From: Thermoplasmata archaeon | GTDB lineage: Archaea > Thermoplasmatota > E2 > UBA202 > JdFR-43 | DNA: 29,003 nucleotides | Direction: 5' to 3' | NCBI GenBank assembly: GCA_021158865.1 | Contig: JAGGSX010000122.1 | Coordinates: 1 to 29,003 of the forward strand | Shown: piece after piece, positions 4,168-10,033 of the stretch | How positions within the stretch are numbered: position 1 is the first letter of the stretch | Layout of the letters: every line of letters begins with the position of its first letter | Notes under the pieces: generated by a model | What the model was told of the DNA's origin: nothing | Database searches by the model: none | Seen by the model: only the letters and a program-made list of their open reading frames with translations | Made by a program: the position numbers and the translations under genes

Positions 4168-5313
4168 TTACAAATCTTCAGCCACATATATGTTGTCCTT
4201 ATTCCTTTTTATTCTTATATCTGCATATTCTCCAATTTTCTTATTTGTATTTATTACCTGTATAATTCTATCTCTTGCAACTGCAAGCATTTCATTTTTA
4301 ATTCTTCCATACATTTCCAATTTAACTCTCAATTTTTCTCCAATTCTAAATTTTTTTGGCAATGACTTGCATTTAACAATATTAAAATCTGAAGAAGATA
4401 AAATAAGGTTTTCATCAATGCTTCTTAATTTTCTAAAAAATGTTGAAAAATCCATTTTCTTAATTTTTTTTGGATTTCTGCCAAACCTATATTTAACAAA
4501 TTTCTGTATTCCAAACGGCTTCCATCTTTTTCCTGCTCCTATCTTTGTGCCAAAATCTATTATTTTTTTTATATCATCATCATTGTAGTTAGGTAGCCAT
4601 ACTGGAGCAATCAATAAATCTATATTGCTTGAGGCAATCTCCTCTGAAATTTTTATGATATGGCTCAAATCATAATTTTTATTCCCTGCAATAATCTTTG
4701 CCATTTTTTCATCCATGCTGTGTAATGATAAATTTATTCTATCTAAATAGCCATCCAATCTTGCAATCATTTCTTTTGTCAATAAAGTTCCATTTGTTTG
4801 AATTGATACAATATCTACAATTTCTGAAAGCCTTTTTATCAACTTTTCGATGAAAGGATAAAGAAAAGGTTCTCCCTGTCCATCTATATGCGCTTCTATG
4901 CTTTTACAATATTTTCTCTTAAAATTTACTAATTTTTCAAATTCATCTAAAAGATAATCAACATCAACAAGATAATCTGTAACTCTTGTCCTGCTCATTC
5001 CTTCATCAACTGAACAAAATATACAATTTAAATTGCAACCTGTTATCGGACGAACTTGAATTAAGTTTGTTCCTCTATCAATCAATCCAAATGCATTATG
5101 GCCAATAAGAGGAAATCCACTTTCCTCACTTATATAATAAAGCCTTCTTTTGGTCAGAGCATTATATAATTCTTTTTCTCCATACTGAATTATTTCCTCA
5201 TCACTATATTTTTTCCTATATCTTTCATAAAATTTTTTTGGAACTCTCGCTTCTATTACCCCATAAATTGTAAAGATAACATACTTTTCATCGTATCTTT
5301 TTTCATACTTCAT
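4168..5313 (-). CDS. Radical SAM protein with a C-terminal TRAM-like domain (uncharacterised archaeal family, COG2100-like)
   Basis: CNLNCIFC (CxxxCxxC), IDGQGEP and QTNG motifs; beta-rich C-terminal ~60 aa resembling TRAM. Confidence 0.85.
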   Translation of the reverse strand: MKYEKRYDEKYVIFTIYGVIEARVPKKFYERYRKKYSDEEIIQYGEKELYNALTKRRLYYISEESGFPLIGHNAFGLIDRGTNLIQVRPITGCNLNCIFCSVDEGMSRTRVTDYLVDVDYLLDEFEKLVNFKRKYCKSIEAHIDGQGEPFLYPFIEKLIKRLSEIVDIVSIQTNGTLLTKEMIARLDGYLDRINLSLHSMDEKMAKIIAGNKNYDLSHIIKISEEIASSNIDLLIAPVWLPNYNDDDIKKIIDFGTKIGAGKRWKPFGIQKFVKYRFGRNPKKIKKMDFSTFFRKLRSIDENLILSSSDFNIVKCKSLPKKFRIGEKLRVKLEMYGRIKNEMLAVARDRIIQVINTNKKIGEYADIRIKRNKDNIYVAEDL

Positions 5314-6677
5314 TTAAGCCAGTTTTTATACTCTATCTTTGATACAACCAATGGCGTGGGCGACTGCGGGTTTTCATCTTTTATTTCATCCACTTCCTTT
5401 GCAACAACTTTAACCTTATGCTCAAATTTTTCTTCATATCTCTCCACAATCTTATCCTTAAGTTTATCTTTTGATGGACCCTTTCCATCCCCAAATACAA
5501 TCCAAACTTCTACCTCGTCGGGCTTATATTGGTGAAGCTGAAATCTTTTTATTTTTGTTGAATTCAATTCTGTGGCTACCTCTCCAGGAATCCACATCAC
5601 GGCAGAAGGCGGCACAAGTTTTCCATCTGGAAGAATTATTGAATTTCCGCTTCTTCCTTCTATTCTTTTTATTAAAGGTGTATCAATTCCACAATCACAT
5701 GCTTCATTACTTGGCGTTACAATATCATCTATACCAACATATCTTATAATTGGTGTCCCTTTTCCATACAACCTCGTCACTGCGATATGAGCTGGCTCAT
5801 TTTCAACATGGTTACCCTTATTATCTATAAATTCAAGATGGACAAAGTCGTAATGAATATGATATTTTCCACGCTCGCATTCAAATGCTATTGGACCAGC
5901 TTCAGTAGCTCCATATACATCAAATACGGGGGCATCAAAAGCCTTGCCAACTATTTTTCTCGTTTCTTCATCAAATGTTCCGCCACATGAGCCAACAAGA
6001 TTAACATTTATTTTATTTCCATATCCTTGCTCGCGCAGAAAAGCAAGGTGGCGAAGAGCCCCTGGATACCCAGCCAGCACTTCTGGATTAAATTCTTCTA
6101 TTTTTTTAATCATATTCCTTGGATCTTCGTTCACATTTAGCAATTGTATGTGATTTGTTCCAATTCCTGAACCTTTCATCAAACTCAATACAACATTATC
6201 ATAATATGGCTCCTGCATGCTTCCCGTATAATCTCCTATCAATGACATTCTTGTTTTTCTCCAGTTATATCCATGGGCTTTTAATTCTCTAACAGAACCA
6301 AATAATTGACGGAGAAAACCATAGCTATCTATCCAGAGTGCTACGGGTTTTCCTGTTGAACCCGATGTTATAAGAGTATGACCTTTAAATCCTTCTGGAG
6401 CAGATTTATCTGGATATGCGTTTCTCAAATCTTCTTTCGTTATGAATGGCAACTTATCCAAGTCGTCAAGGCTTTTTATTTTATCAACATCAACACCATA
6501 CTCTTTATATTTTTTTATATATAGAGGAACTTTTAGAGAATATCTGAAAATTTTCCTAAACATTTTATTTCTATATGCGTCAAGCTCCTTTCTATTTTCT
6601 CTAAAAATTCTATTCACATTGGTATAATAACCTATTGCTGCCCTTACTGCAAACACAGGATTAAGGAATGGGTTCAT
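5310..6677 (-). CDS. Phenylacetate-CoA ligase-like (PaaK/CapK family) adenylate-forming enzyme
   Basis: LPFITKEDLR, TSGSTGKP (P-loop), YGATEAG, PIIRYVGIDD and EGRS motifs; overlaps the radical SAM start by 4 nt (ATGA). Confidence 0.87.
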   Translation of the reverse strand: MNPFLNPVFAVRAAIGYYTNVNRIFRENRKELDAYRNKMFRKIFRYSLKVPLYIKKYKEYGVDVDKIKSLDDLDKLPFITKEDLRNAYPDKSAPEGFKGHTLITSGSTGKPVALWIDSYGFLRQLFGSVRELKAHGYNWRKTRMSLIGDYTGSMQEPYYDNVVLSLMKGSGIGTNHIQLLNVNEDPRNMIKKIEEFNPEVLAGYPGALRHLAFLREQGYGNKINVNLVGSCGGTFDEETRKIVGKAFDAPVFDVYGATEAGPIAFECERGKYHIHYDFVHLEFIDNKGNHVENEPAHIAVTRLYGKGTPIIRYVGIDDIVTPSNEACDCGIDTPLIKRIEGRSGNSIILPDGKLVPPSAVMWIPGEVATELNSTKIKRFQLHQYKPDEVEVWIVFGDGKGPSKDKLKDKIVERYEEKFEHKVKVVAKEVDEIKDENPQSPTPLVVSKIEYKNWLK

Positions 6678-6788
6678 GTTATTAAATATGGAAGTATTTA
6701 AAATTTTTTTAATGAAATTTGTGAAACCAAAAATAGTGTAGAAAGACTTAAGGAATTTTATAAATTTTTGATGTAAATAATTAGATTT

Positions 6789-6795
6789 AAAAAAA
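6789..6795 (-). terminator. Oligo-T terminator after tRNA-Leu
   Basis: A T7 run on the minus strand begins 9 nt past the discriminator base. Confidence 0.55.
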
Positions 6796-6803
6796 GGGAA
6801 TAG

Positions 6804-6933
6804 TGCAGGGGGCGAGATTTTCGAGCATGCTTGCGAGAAAATATGGCTTCACAAGTCATGCATTTGAACTCGCGAACCCCTACGGGACAGGCCCCTCAAG
6901 CCTGCGCCTTTGGCCTGGCTCGGCTACCCCTGC
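6804..6933 (-). tRNA. tRNA-Leu(GAG) with a 45-nt T-loop intron; CCA not encoded
   Basis: Minus strand: acceptor GCAGGGG/CCCCTGC plus A73; D stem GCC/GGC; anticodon stem CAGGC/GCCTG with loop TTGAGGG (GAG at 6897-6895); variable arm CCC-GTA-GGG; T stem GCGAG/CTCGC. Removing 6862..6818 gives the loop TTCAAAT and an 85-nt class II tRNA. Confidence 0.93.
6818..6862 (-). other. Non-canonical tRNA intron at position 59/60
   Basis: TGCATGACTTGTGAAGCCATATTTTCTCGCAAGCATGCTCGAAAA. Internal hairpin GCATG/CATGC plus CTTGTGA/TCGCAAG; BHB-like junctions AA|T on both strands. The exact boundary is inferred from BHB geometry because AAAT repeats at both ends. Confidence 0.85.
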
Positions 6934-6954
6934 TTATTTTAATAAGTATACTAT

Positions 6955-6970
6955 TATTTAAATCTATTTT
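6955..6970 (-). promoter_or_regulatory. BRE and TATA box for tRNA-Leu
   Basis: AAAATAGA-TTTAAATA; the TATA box starts 29 nt before tRNA nucleotide 1. Confidence 0.6.
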
Positions 6971-6973
6971 ATG

Positions 6974-8728
6974 CTATTGCTTTATCAATTCTTTAAATTC
7001 CTTTTCCATGTTTTTCTCTATGCTTTCAAATTTCTCCTCCCATTCCTCATTTGGAATTGTAGCCATTCTTGCTATTGCTTCGCTACTCTTCAATTCTTTT
7101 AATTTTTCAAAAGGAACTTTTTCAATGGCTTCTTTCATTAAATGATAAAACTTTATCATTATGCGAAGCATTTCATATTGTTTTTTGTATGGACAAAAAG
7201 TATCGACTTCATGATATGCATTTTGCTGAAGAAAATCTTCTCTTATAACACGTGCTCCTTCTAAAATAACTCTATCAGCTGGCGGCAGAGCATCTGGACC
7301 AACAAGACGTATGATTTCCTGTAATTCTTCTTCTTTCTGAAGCAAAGCCATTGCTTCATTTCTCAATTTAAGCCAGTCCTTACCGACATTTTCTTCCCAC
7401 CACTCTTTTACCCTCTCTAAATATAAAGAATATGAACGAAGCCAATTAACGGAAGGAAAATGTCTTCTATCTGCCAAATCAGAATCAAGAGCCCAGAATA
7501 CTTTCACAATGCGCAATGTATTTTGTGTAACTGGTTCTGAAAAATCTCCGCCAGGAGGGGAAACAGCCCCTATAACTGATATGCTTCCTTCTCTTTTACC
7601 GCTTGATAAAACAACCACTCTCCCCGACCTTTCATAAAACTGGGCAAGACGGGATGCAAGATATGCTGGATAACCTTCTTCACCGGGCATTTCTTCAAGT
7701 CTTCCAGAAATTTCTCTTAAAGCTTCAGCCCATCTACTTGTTGAATCTGCCATCAAAGCAACGCTATAACCCATGTCGCGATAATATTCTGCCAATGTAA
7801 TACCAGTATATATTGAAGCTTCTCTTGCAGCAACAGGCATGTTTGATGTGTTTGCTATTAATATTGTTCTTTCCATTAAAGGATGCCCTGTTTTAGGGTC
7901 TTTCAATTTTGGAAAATCACGCAGAACTTCTGTCATTTCATTTCCACGCTCCCCACATCCGATATAAATAACAATGTCGGCATCGCTCCATCTGGCGAGC
8001 TGATGTTGAGAAACAGTTTTTCCTGTTCCGAAGCCGCCGGGGATAGCTGCCGTGCCTCCTTTGGCGATTGGGAAAAATGTATCAAATACACGCTGCCCTG
8101 TTATTAAAGGCAAAATTGGCGGCAATTTTTCTTTATATGGACGAGCCTGCCTGACTGGCCATTTCTGAAGCATTTTTATCTCTTCTTCTTTTCCATTTAC
8201 CTTCACCATAGCAATTGTATCCTCAATTGTGAATTTTCCTTCCTCAATACTTGTAATAACTCCTTTTTCAATTTCTAATGGCAACATAACACGATGCTCT
8301 GCTATTGGTGTTTCTTTAACAACTCCCAAAATATCTCCACGAGTAACTTTATCATTTTTCTTTACTGAAGGAACAAATTCCCATTTTTTCTTTCTATCTA
8401 TCGGATATGCTTCAACACCACGCGTAATAAAATCACCGGTCTTTTTCATTATATCTGGCAATGGGCGTTGAATTCCATCATATATTGATGTTAGCAACCC
8501 CGGAGCAAGCTCAACGGCAAGAGGCATTCCTGTATTTATGACATCATCTCCAGGCTTAAGTCCTGTTGTATCTTCATAAACCTGTATTGTAGCTCTATCC
8601 TCTTTCAATTCTATTATTTCTCCTATGAGCTTTTCTTCCCCGACTTTGACAAGGTCATACATCTTTGCTCCTTTCATTCCCTTTGCCTTGACAACCGGCC
8701 CAGCAACATTAATTATTTTTCCTTTCAT
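6974..8728 (-). CDS. atpA: A-type ATP synthase subunit A
   Basis: Walker [44 protein letters not shown] and [12 protein letters not shown]. Start moved to MKGKII (8728) because GGGGAG SD precedes it and atpF stops at 8730. Confidence 0.97.
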
Positions 8729-8729
8729 T

Positions 8730-9038
8730 TTACTCCCCTGCATCAACTCCTACTGCCCTAATAATAAATTTCCTTATAATTTCTTTTCTCTCTTTTATCT
8801 TCCCTTTCTTATCTGGAATCTCAACTATGATTGGTTTATCATTTAAAAGCATGAACGAGAGAATTTTATCTCTAATTTTTTCGGCATATTTCTCATTTAT
8901 CACCAAAATCTCAACTTCTTCATTTTTAACTAATTCATCAAACTGCCTTGAAACATCATCAGCCACAACACAATGGCTGGCTCCAGCAAGGCGCAGCAGG
9001 GCAACAGTATCTTCGTCTCCTATACATGCAATTTTCAT
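8730..9038 (-). CDS. atpF: A-type ATP synthase subunit F
   Basis: [19 protein letters not shown] and PIIVEIP motifs; 102 aa; operon position. Confidence 0.93.
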
Positions 9039-10033
9039 TCAACCACCACCAATTGCATCGCCAGAGATGGCATATTTTCTTCTATTGCCTTTGCAACAAT
9101 CTTCAAATTTCTTGCTTCCATCTCTTTTTCAAATATAAATCTTATACCAGGTCCCAAAGCAAGAGGGTTTTCATTCGCTATTTCTCTCGAAACTTTTAGC
9201 AAATGCTTATCCAAAGCTCTTTCAAATGCTATCACCCCTTCTCTTTCAAAATCAGCTATTGCATTCCTCAGGCATGAAAAATATGATGTTCCTTCAAGTA
9301 TAGAAACAATTTCGCTTATTGAATCTATTTTCATTAATTCCTGTAATTTCCATATCGGCAATTCCCATCCTTCGCCATATAAGTATATGGGCAAATCATA
9401 ATATTTTCCTCTCAATATTGCTTTTAAATTTAAAAGGTCAATCAGAGTTTTTGCAAATCTATCCCTTGCCTTTATACATGATGATGGCAATTTAACTTCA
9501 ATCAAAAATTTTACAGCCTGCTTTTCAATGTCTCTTTCCACTTCTTCAATTGGTTTGTTTATATCTATATTCCATCCATATTCCTTAAAAATTAAATTAA
9601 TTTCTTCTTTTTCAGCCATTTTAATTTTATTAATCATTTCTTTTGTTTTTTCTAAAAATGCATTATTTTCTATTTCCTTTCCTTCAATAATGGCTCTTAC
9701 AGCATTTTTAATTGTATAACTATCAATTTTTTTTATATAAGCGTTGTAAAATTCTTTTACTTTTTTTGGAGAATCATCCCTTGCCATTTTTATTATTTTT
9801 ATAAGGCTTTCATCAATACTTTTCTGCAATTCATCCGCATTTTCTCCTTTTAGAATAAAATCCCTGCTAACTACATTATTTTTAAAATCTTCTATACTAC
9901 CGGATTCAAGTAACCTCGAAATTTCTTTTTCTTTTATAAAAGTGTTCGGTATGGCACTAAATTTTGCATTTGAATATGAAAATTTTGATGTTATAAATGG
10001 AATTCCTATCTCAAATATTTCAATCATTTCCAT
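9035..10033 (-). CDS. atpC: A-type ATP synthase subunit C
   Basis: 332 aa helical protein with DLLNLKAILRG, LEGTSY and KEMEARNLKIVAKAI motifs; lies between E and F. Confidence 0.9.
   Translation of the reverse strand: MEMIEIFEIGIPFITSKFSYSNAKFSAIPNTFIKEKEISRLLESGSIEDFKNNVVSRDFILKGENADELQKSIDESLIKIIKMARDDSPKKVKEFYNAYIKKIDSYTIKNAVRAIIEGKEIENNAFLEKTKEMINKIKMAEKEEINLIFKEYGWNIDINKPIEEVERDIEKQAVKFLIEVKLPSSCIKARDRFAKTLIDLLNLKAILRGKYYDLPIYLYGEGWELPIWKLQELMKIDSISEIVSILEGTSYFSCLRNAIADFEREGVIAFERALDKHLLKVSREIANENPLALGPGIRFIFEKEMEARNLKIVAKAIEENMPSLAMQLVVVE

Follow-up and report, generated by a model that had tools for sequence, protein, structure and literature searches.

The stretch of DNA analysed here (the window, 29,003 nucleotides in length) is contig 1 of G000, a MAG of 1.31 Mb in 216 contigs with 34% GC and 94.6% completeness. 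On its reverse strand it carries a class II tRNA-Leu(GAG) gene, the T loop of which is interrupted by 45 nt. The gene lies downstream of atpA at a spacing of 41 nt. The nearest relatives of AtpA were found in MAGs labelled Thermoplasmatales/Thermoplasmatota (78% and 67%), and it is on this protein that the placement of the genome in Thermoplasmatota rests; the host is an uncultured hydrothermal-vent Thermoplasmatota archaeon. The features of the locus are as follows.

6804..6933, reverse strand: class II tRNA-Leu(GAG) gene, 130 nt with the intron and 85 nt when spliced, CCA not encoded
6863..6933, reverse strand: 5′ exon, tRNA positions 1-59, by direct reading and by BLAST identity of 1-72 to relatives
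6897..6895, reverse strand: anticodon GAG within the loop TTGAGGG, by direct reading
6818..6862, reverse strand: intron of 45 nt at 59/60, by family alignment and model R1 (72.5 bits; the model is described below)
6804..6817, reverse strand: 3′ exon, consisting of T60, the 3′ strand of the T stem (CTCGC), the acceptor strand CCCCTGC and discriminator A73
6865..6868, reverse strand: T54-A57 (TTCA), forming the 5′ side of the splice motif's central helix, by pair counts over 15 family members
6955..6962, reverse strand: TATA-box-like TTTAAATA, -29 to -22 from the tRNA 5′ end, read directly, a putative promoter element
6789..6795, reverse strand: T7 run 8 nt past the tRNA 3′ end, read directly, a putative terminator signal of archaeal type
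6974..8746, reverse strand: atpA, catalytic subunit of the A-type ATPase (Pfam), immediately upstream of tRNA-Leu(GAG)

The A-type ATPase gene run includes the C subunit (9035-10033) and the A subunit (6974-8746) and ends after atpA, where tRNA-Leu(GAG) follows; atpB and atpD are not adjacent to atpA in the window. Beyond the tRNA lies an AMP-binding-like gene (5310-6677), the Pfam match of which, at 28.4 bits, falls just below the curated cut-off of 29.9 bits. Elsewhere in G000, CRISPR-like arrays were noticed on contigs C178, C189, C207 and C195, a repeat starting GTTTCAATCCCTTATAGG being present on three contigs and another repeat type, starting GTCGCAATCCCCTCAAATC, on C195.

Direct reading of the tRNA gene gave the acceptor stem GCAGGGG/CCCCTGC, a 3-bp D stem, the anticodon stem CAGGC/GCCTG, a long variable arm, the T stem GCGAG/CTCGC and the discriminator A, with the T loop TTCAAA|T interrupted by the 45-nt insert. 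AAAT is present at both junctions, so that the cut can be written anywhere between 56/57 and 60/61, and we assigned the insertion point to 59/60 because the bulge-helix-bulge geometry fixes this ambiguous cut. ARAGORN reported no tRNA at the locus, neither in the run on the window nor in the whole-genome run with introns allowed, and Rfam reported none at gathering or at permissive thresholds, the permissive search giving chance-level matches only. When the 45 nt (6862..6818) were removed, ARAGORN called tRNA-Leu(gag), and excision of the insert indeed restores a complete canonical tRNA. An earlier note on this DNA, made from the sequence letters, had described a class II tRNA-Leu(GAG) gene split at 59/60 of the T loop by a 45-nt intron, equipped with its own promoter and T7 terminator and liable to be missed by standard scanners. 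Its description was borne out by the valid ARAGORN call after excision, by the equality of the spliced gene to intronless orthologues, by direct reading with the bulge-helix-bulge geometry and by the blank ARAGORN and Rfam results on the unspliced locus; the TATA-like element and the T7 run were read as well, in putative roles.

Splice motif and integrity of tRNA-Leu(GAG)

The intron begins with U1, which is followed by a 12-bp hairpin with a bulged A (6861..6825) and by an unpaired U(-7) at 6824, while its 3′ part consists of CGAA (6823..6820), lying opposite T54-A57, and AA (6819..6818), lying within the 3′ bulge. In this arrangement a canonical 3-nt bulge (A, A, U60) adjoins the T stem, the central helix is made up of U54-A, U55-A and C56-G together with an A57.C mismatch, which amounts to 3 bp and not 4, and the 5′ bulge A58-A59-U1 is opposite the one unpaired U(-7). 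The junctions laid out in the earlier note (3′ bulge, central helix with A57.C, 5′ bulge and 12-bp hairpin) held on re-reading; absent from it were the bulged A of the hairpin and the unpaired U(-7) facing the 5′ bulge. Leu(GAG) does not form the strict hBHBh′ motif (two 3-nt bulges and a 4-bp helix). Its T stem, canonical 3′ bulge, central helix and 12-bp inner hairpin make up a relaxed motif of the hBH/BHL type, and the relaxation of the bulge-helix-bulge, likewise noted before, lies in the 3 bp with A57.C and in the extra U opposite the 5′ bulge. The bulge-helix-bulge-like fold has a calculated energy of -20.8 kcal/mol versus -21.5 kcal/mol for the MFE structure, in which the central helix is open, so that forming it costs 0.7 kcal/mol; in tRNA-Gly(UCC), a host with G57, the same type of intron gains 2 kcal/mol on forming the central helix. 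Strict 3-4-3 motifs were found in other members of the intron family, namely Gly(GCC) and Met(CAU), and several members, Leu(GAG) included, deviate from them.

The spliced Leu(GAG) sequence shows 100% identity to the intronless gene of six relatives, three of them congeners (G001, G004 and G005) and three from further genera (G008, G012 and G020), and this equality to intact orthologues therefore excludes chance. When the gene was compared by BLAST with 40 related genomes, matches were confined to positions 1-72, and reading of the loci revealed an uninterrupted Leu(GAG) (...GCGAGTTCAAATCTCGCCCCCTGCA) in at least 27 relatives from two families. One may argue that the insert is an artefact of assembly or binning, as the MAG is fragmented and the intron family repetitive. 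However, in the source run a contig of 2760 nt spans 6650-6891, from the 3′ exon through the intron into the 5′ exon, with zero mismatches and a depth of 18.8, a second contig of this run spans 6883-7150 at a depth of 17, and three more runs contain 87-98% of the words of the region, which leaves an artefact with practically no chance of being the explanation.

Searches of metagenome runs found DNA of the locus only in DNA-type metagenomes from hydrothermal vents and marine sediments, and among the four runs compared with the locus there was no spliced transcript of this organism. An 815-nt contig (X15) from another sample series was considered as a splice product, since it joins 6862 to 6816 with 45 nt skipped, but its flanks differ from the window, and it is best read as the intronless Leu(GAG) gene of a related organism.

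The earlier note had regarded an intact Leu(GAG) gene elsewhere, coupled with the lack of a spliced product, as the mark of a pseudogene. No second Leu(GAG) gene was found in the 94.6%-complete assembly, and the exons of the interrupted one are 100% conserved. CTT, a major Leu codon, and CTC together account for 32% of Leu codons across five window genes, and a Leu(GAG) tRNA is therefore needed. From this need and the lack of a second copy we infer that the precursor must be spliced, unless a copy resides in the missing ~5% of the genome.

T-loop introns in the genome and across the order

The earlier note had proposed to look for the same intron in other tRNA genes, and this search was productive. 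Using BLAST and nhmmer within the genome, we found the T arm with its intron repeated on other contigs of G000. The scan from which the genes were counted retained only those candidates that ARAGORN accepts after splicing (a generic regular-expression scan was dropped as too noisy), and it gave at least 15 of the ~40 detected tRNA genes with related introns of 14-49 nt at 59/60; all 15 yield valid tRNAs in ARAGORN after the cut at this point. The host genes are those for Leu (GAG, UAG), Gly (UCC, CCC, GCC), Arg (CCU, UCU), Glu (UUC, CUC), Pro (CGG), Ser (CGA), Ala (GGC), Met (CAU), Lys (UUU) and Gln (CUG). An additional intron near the anticodon is present in 4 of the 15, and ~10 further anticodon-side introns were seen in ARAGORN calls or as long Rfam matches. 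Altogether roughly 25 of the ~40 detected tRNA genes are interrupted, a figure which is approximate, some ARAGORN calls being mis-registered.

Such mis-registered calls, reported as intronless, are Gly(GCC) at C43:1728-1802, Ser(CGA) at C11:4695-4778 and Ala(GGC) at C213:162-234, in each of which a false 3′ half was assembled from intron sequence; the Rfam tRNA scores at C43 and C213 are just 29-31 bits. Automatic annotation of the lineage will include mis-registered tRNAs of this sort, and as such genes are overlooked or wrongly called by ARAGORN and by the Rfam tRNA model, tRNA complements and tRNA-based completeness are understated for this lineage.

Over the 15 T arms, the T stem together with the pairs 54-57:(-3..-6) was found to be 96.8% paired, versus 84% when shuffled and at most 65% when slid. 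At position 57:(-6), six family members have A-U, four have G-C and four are other or unpaired, and this switch between A-U and G-C is how a genuine central helix should covary. These observations bear on whether the Leu(GAG) gene is dead, carrying a short repeat in its T loop while its function is supplied elsewhere. The splice motif is imperfect, and EndA was not seen in the assembly, with ~5% of the genome unassembled. Against this, the exons are those of working orthologues without a single difference, the promoter and terminator signals are intact, and inserts of the same type sit in 15 tRNA genes, which include the sole detected genes for several anticodons; moreover, CTT is a major Leu codon, and a second Leu(GAG) was not found. 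We therefore consider a dead gene to be very unlikely.

For the distribution among relatives we used R1, a covariance model built on the T arm and its intron, at thresholds of E ≤ 0.01 within the order and E ≤ 1e-4 in other families. R1 matched 24/24 genomes of f1 and 13/13 of f2, the two main families, that is 37 of the 38 other genomes of the order, with 1-11 matches in each genome outside G000. None of the 116 genomes from seven other families of the class was matched (0/116), a result which doubles as a control of specificity. Among members of the genus, matches numbered 11 in G002, 7 in G001, 3 in G003, 2 in G004 and 1 in G005; with the 15 genes of G000, counted by the combined scan, occupancy in the genus ranges from 1 to 15 genes, and the sets of host genes overlap only partly among its members. 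The T-loop introns of Gly(CCC) and Glu(UUC) differ in subfamily or length between G000 and its sister species G002 (a GCATG-type of 45-48 nt versus a CTGCAAC-type of 48 nt or a 30-nt form), and introns are being replaced as well as gained and lost, with a fast turnover.

G002 is ~90% identical to the window through atpA, and its contig (C59:5939-6010; L095, L192) stops exactly at the Leu(GAG) insertion point, ...GCGAGTTCAAAT, the 3′ exon being absent from the G002 assembly. A repeated intron that breaks the assembly would yield a contig end at this T-loop site, and the Leu(GAG) gene of G002 may share the intron. As to whether such introns are common and already catalogued in this lineage, a question which the earlier note had raised against its own reading, they are indeed common across the order, and no paper cataloguing them was found.

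Splicing enzymes

RtcB is encoded in G000 (C3:756-2060). No EndA was recovered from the assembly (94.6% complete), in which PF01974, PF02778 and the EndA protein of a congener all remained without a match. BLASTN with the EndA locus of G004 recovered no EndA sequence from G000, the genes downstream of it matching contig C31 in a rearranged order, and the contig end closest to these downstream genes carries no EndA remnant. Because of the number of introns (roughly 25 genes), we read this absence as probably being an assembly gap. In 36 of the 40 other related genomes, EndA is a single ORF of 318-362 aa with two PF01974 repeats, which is the α′2 build. The congener enzyme aligns end to end, over residues 16-322, with the α′2 EndA of A. 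fulgidus and has zero extra residues at the site of the Crenarchaea-specific loop (CSL) grafted in PDB 3p1y; in congeners it is a single polypeptide of tandem repeats, with the catalytic Tyr/His/Lys located C-terminally and no CSL/ASL-type insert. The same layout was observed in nine genomes, comprising members of the order that are rich or poor in introns and two relatives from the class which lack T-loop introns.

Enzymes of the α′2 type are classed as narrow (PMC6379350, PMC3239211), and cleavage of relaxed motifs has been tied to EndA bearing specificity loops (PMC6379350, PMC5829648, PMC3239211). A broadened EndA specificity could hence have been the innovation that allowed T-loop introns in this lineage, and besides the published narrowness of α′2 enzymes it would account for the several family members that depart from the strict 3-4-3 motif and for the restriction of T-loop introns, within the class, to this order. 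We regard it as rather unlikely, since the EndA of the order aligns over its whole length with the A. fulgidus enzyme and has no insert at the CSL site, its length and layout are as in class relatives without T-loop introns, and the strict-motif members, Gly(GCC) and Met(CAU), should be cut by any archaeal EndA. The unusually permissive EndA suggested in the earlier note thus received no support, and the classification of the enzyme that it had called for gave α′2, as read in congeners, built as in the intron-free relatives of the class; a subtler change in specificity may be present.

We consider it very probable that tRNA-Leu(GAG) is a working, apparently single-copy gene with a recently gained intron of the T-loop family which is removed by splicing. 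Transcription would start from a TATA-type promoter belonging to the gene and yield a precursor of 130 nt. Its T arm would take the fold of a canonical intron-bearing anticodon arm, with the outer helix supplied by the 5-bp T stem. T54-C56 would pair with the intron CGAA, A57 being mismatched, the intron hairpin would provide the inner helix, and A58-A59-U1 and A-A-U60 would form the two bulges. EndA would then cut after A59 and before U60, and RtcB would join the exons, thereby restoring the T loop TTCAAAT. The intron itself would be one copy of a T-loop-specific family that is spreading among the tRNA genes of the order.

Origin of the intron and comparison with known systems

The Leu(GAG) intron has no ORF, and a reverse transcriptase (PF00078) was not found in the G000 assembly. 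Similar sequences are present in non-orthologous tRNA genes, as found by nhmmer and alignments for 15 genes, and at the orthologous Leu(GAG) position the site filled in G000 is empty in G001, G004, G005 and no fewer than 24 other genomes; in addition, the introns of Gly(UCC) and Arg(CCU) of G000 are identical. The earlier note had offered the acquisition of a mobile intron as its other guess, and with a family in at least 15 genes, at least 27 empty sites and two tRNAs sharing an identical copy this guess stands. The Leu(GAG) intron appears from these comparisons as a recent gain. It may be argued that it was ancestral in Leu(GAG) and lost in the relatives, as intron loss is known in archaea and G002, with its contig ending exactly at ...TTCAAAT, may carry the intron too. 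However, this would require many independent precise losses in two families, with at least 27 empty sites, and a foreign origin is indicated both by the 3′ end of G57 type and by the A57.C mismatch, all of which makes an ancestral intron extremely unlikely.

With a recent gain as the preferred reading, we looked at the possible source of the Leu(GAG) copy. Its 3′ end, ...GCTCGAAAA, recurs unchanged in Gly(UCC) and Arg(CCU) of G000, where C(-6) pairs with G57. Among the copies compared, the nearest match it at 38/45 positions (84%), Gly(UCC) of G000 being tied with Glu(CUC) of G011, and a copy nearer than 84% was not found in the 39 genomes of the order. We infer that a tRNA of the G57 type, Gly(UCC) for example, was probably the source of the copy, and the fact that the copies in Gly(UCC) and Arg(CCU) sit in G57 hosts with the same 3′ end fits the origin which the earlier note had surmised. 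Such copying would explain that C(-6) faces A57 in Leu(GAG), a copy which would still lack the compensating U at (-6) found in hosts with A57. Since Leu(GAG) retained A57 on the exon side, the insertion was precise within two or three bases, unlike a long gene-conversion tract. Arg(CCU) and Gly(UCC) of G000 (C140:3002-3063 and C33:10272-10333; L127, L128) share an identical 62-nt stretch of T arm and intron, and the orthologues of Arg(CCU) in G001 and G024 have orthologous flanks, another T stem (GCGGG) and an intron of another subfamily. It looks as if the T arm and intron of Arg(CCU) were converted whole from Gly(UCC), a pattern which, short of proof, points to exchange at the DNA level.

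It is also conceivable that the T-loop family is a selfish RNA element, whose excised intron would be reinserted by EndA and RtcB into a new tRNA and later be fixed in DNA. In any tRNA the T loop TTCRAA is nearly palindromic and can pair with YGAAAA, the 3′ end of the family, and a bulge-helix-bulge could in this way be formed in trans; the Leu(GAG) copy would then be a fresh product of the process, precisely inserted and with a C brought from its former G57 host. We hold such a route, and the corresponding view of the Leu(GAG) copy, to be improbable.

Euryarchaeal-type archaea with α4 or α′2 EndA are described in reviews as having few tRNA introns, nearly all of them at 37/38, and non-canonical introns are there linked to loop-bearing enzymes. 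The vent Thermoplasmatota order contradicts this rule relating EndA type to intron position, as it combines an ordinary EndA with up to ~1/3 of its tRNA genes split at 59/60. In the literature we found no published account of such T-loop introns in Thermoplasmatota, nor any work dealing with the tRNA introns of Thermoprofundales, MBG-D or Aciduliprofundum. Leu(GAG) offers a filled/empty comparison among congeners, candidate donors within the same genome and an uncompensated mismatch as a tell-tale; it constitutes a datable gain event, and intron gain in archaeal tRNAs is thereby open to comparative genomics and simple cleavage assays.

Among known systems, non-canonical bulge-helix-bulge introns at 59/60 have been described in pre-tRNA-Cys(GCA) and pre-tRNA-Pro(GGG) of ARMAN-2 (Ca. 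Micrarchaeum) (PMC3239211), and introns at this position are catalogued in Crenarchaeota and Nanoarchaeota (PMC4090602). The introns reported here share with them the insertion point, a T arm shaped like an anticodon arm that holds a 37/38 intron, and the occurrence of relaxed copies beside strict ones. They differ in that those archaea have (αβ)2 or ε2 EndA with specificity loops, whereas here the host belongs to Thermoplasmatota and its congeners have a plain α′2 enzyme; and unlike the 13-nt Cys intron of ARMAN-2, the Leu(GAG) intron has 45 nt and belongs to a multi-copy family. With the canonical 37/38 hBHBh′ introns of Euryarchaeota the family has in common the presumed use of EndA and RtcB, a 5-bp stem, a 4-bp central helix and 3-nt bulges; it departs from them in its T-loop position and, for Leu(GAG), in the central-helix mismatch and the extra unpaired nucleotide.

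For Thermoproteales, copying of introns between tRNA genes has been proposed (Fujishima et al. 2010, as cited in PMC4090602 and PMC3239211). As far as these citing papers describe them, the transposed introns resemble those of G000 in that related sequences occur in non-orthologous tRNA genes and their presence varies between close relatives, which would imply gain by copying; on the same footing, the G000 family would differ in being found at 59/60 only, with a 3′ end fitted to the T loop, and in the phylum and EndA type of its host. In tRNA-Thr of Caldiarchaeum an intron was gained via integration of a mobile element (PMC3293823). There, as here, the intron content of one tRNA locus varies at the population or species level, but the Leu(GAG) locus has neither a recombinase-bearing element nor a tRNA fragment, and its insert is a precise one of 45 nt. 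The Leu(GAG) intron is hence of a known kind; new are the lineage, the ordinary α′2 enzyme and a family restricted to the T loop, together with a clean filled-versus-empty pair for which a candidate donor type is at hand.
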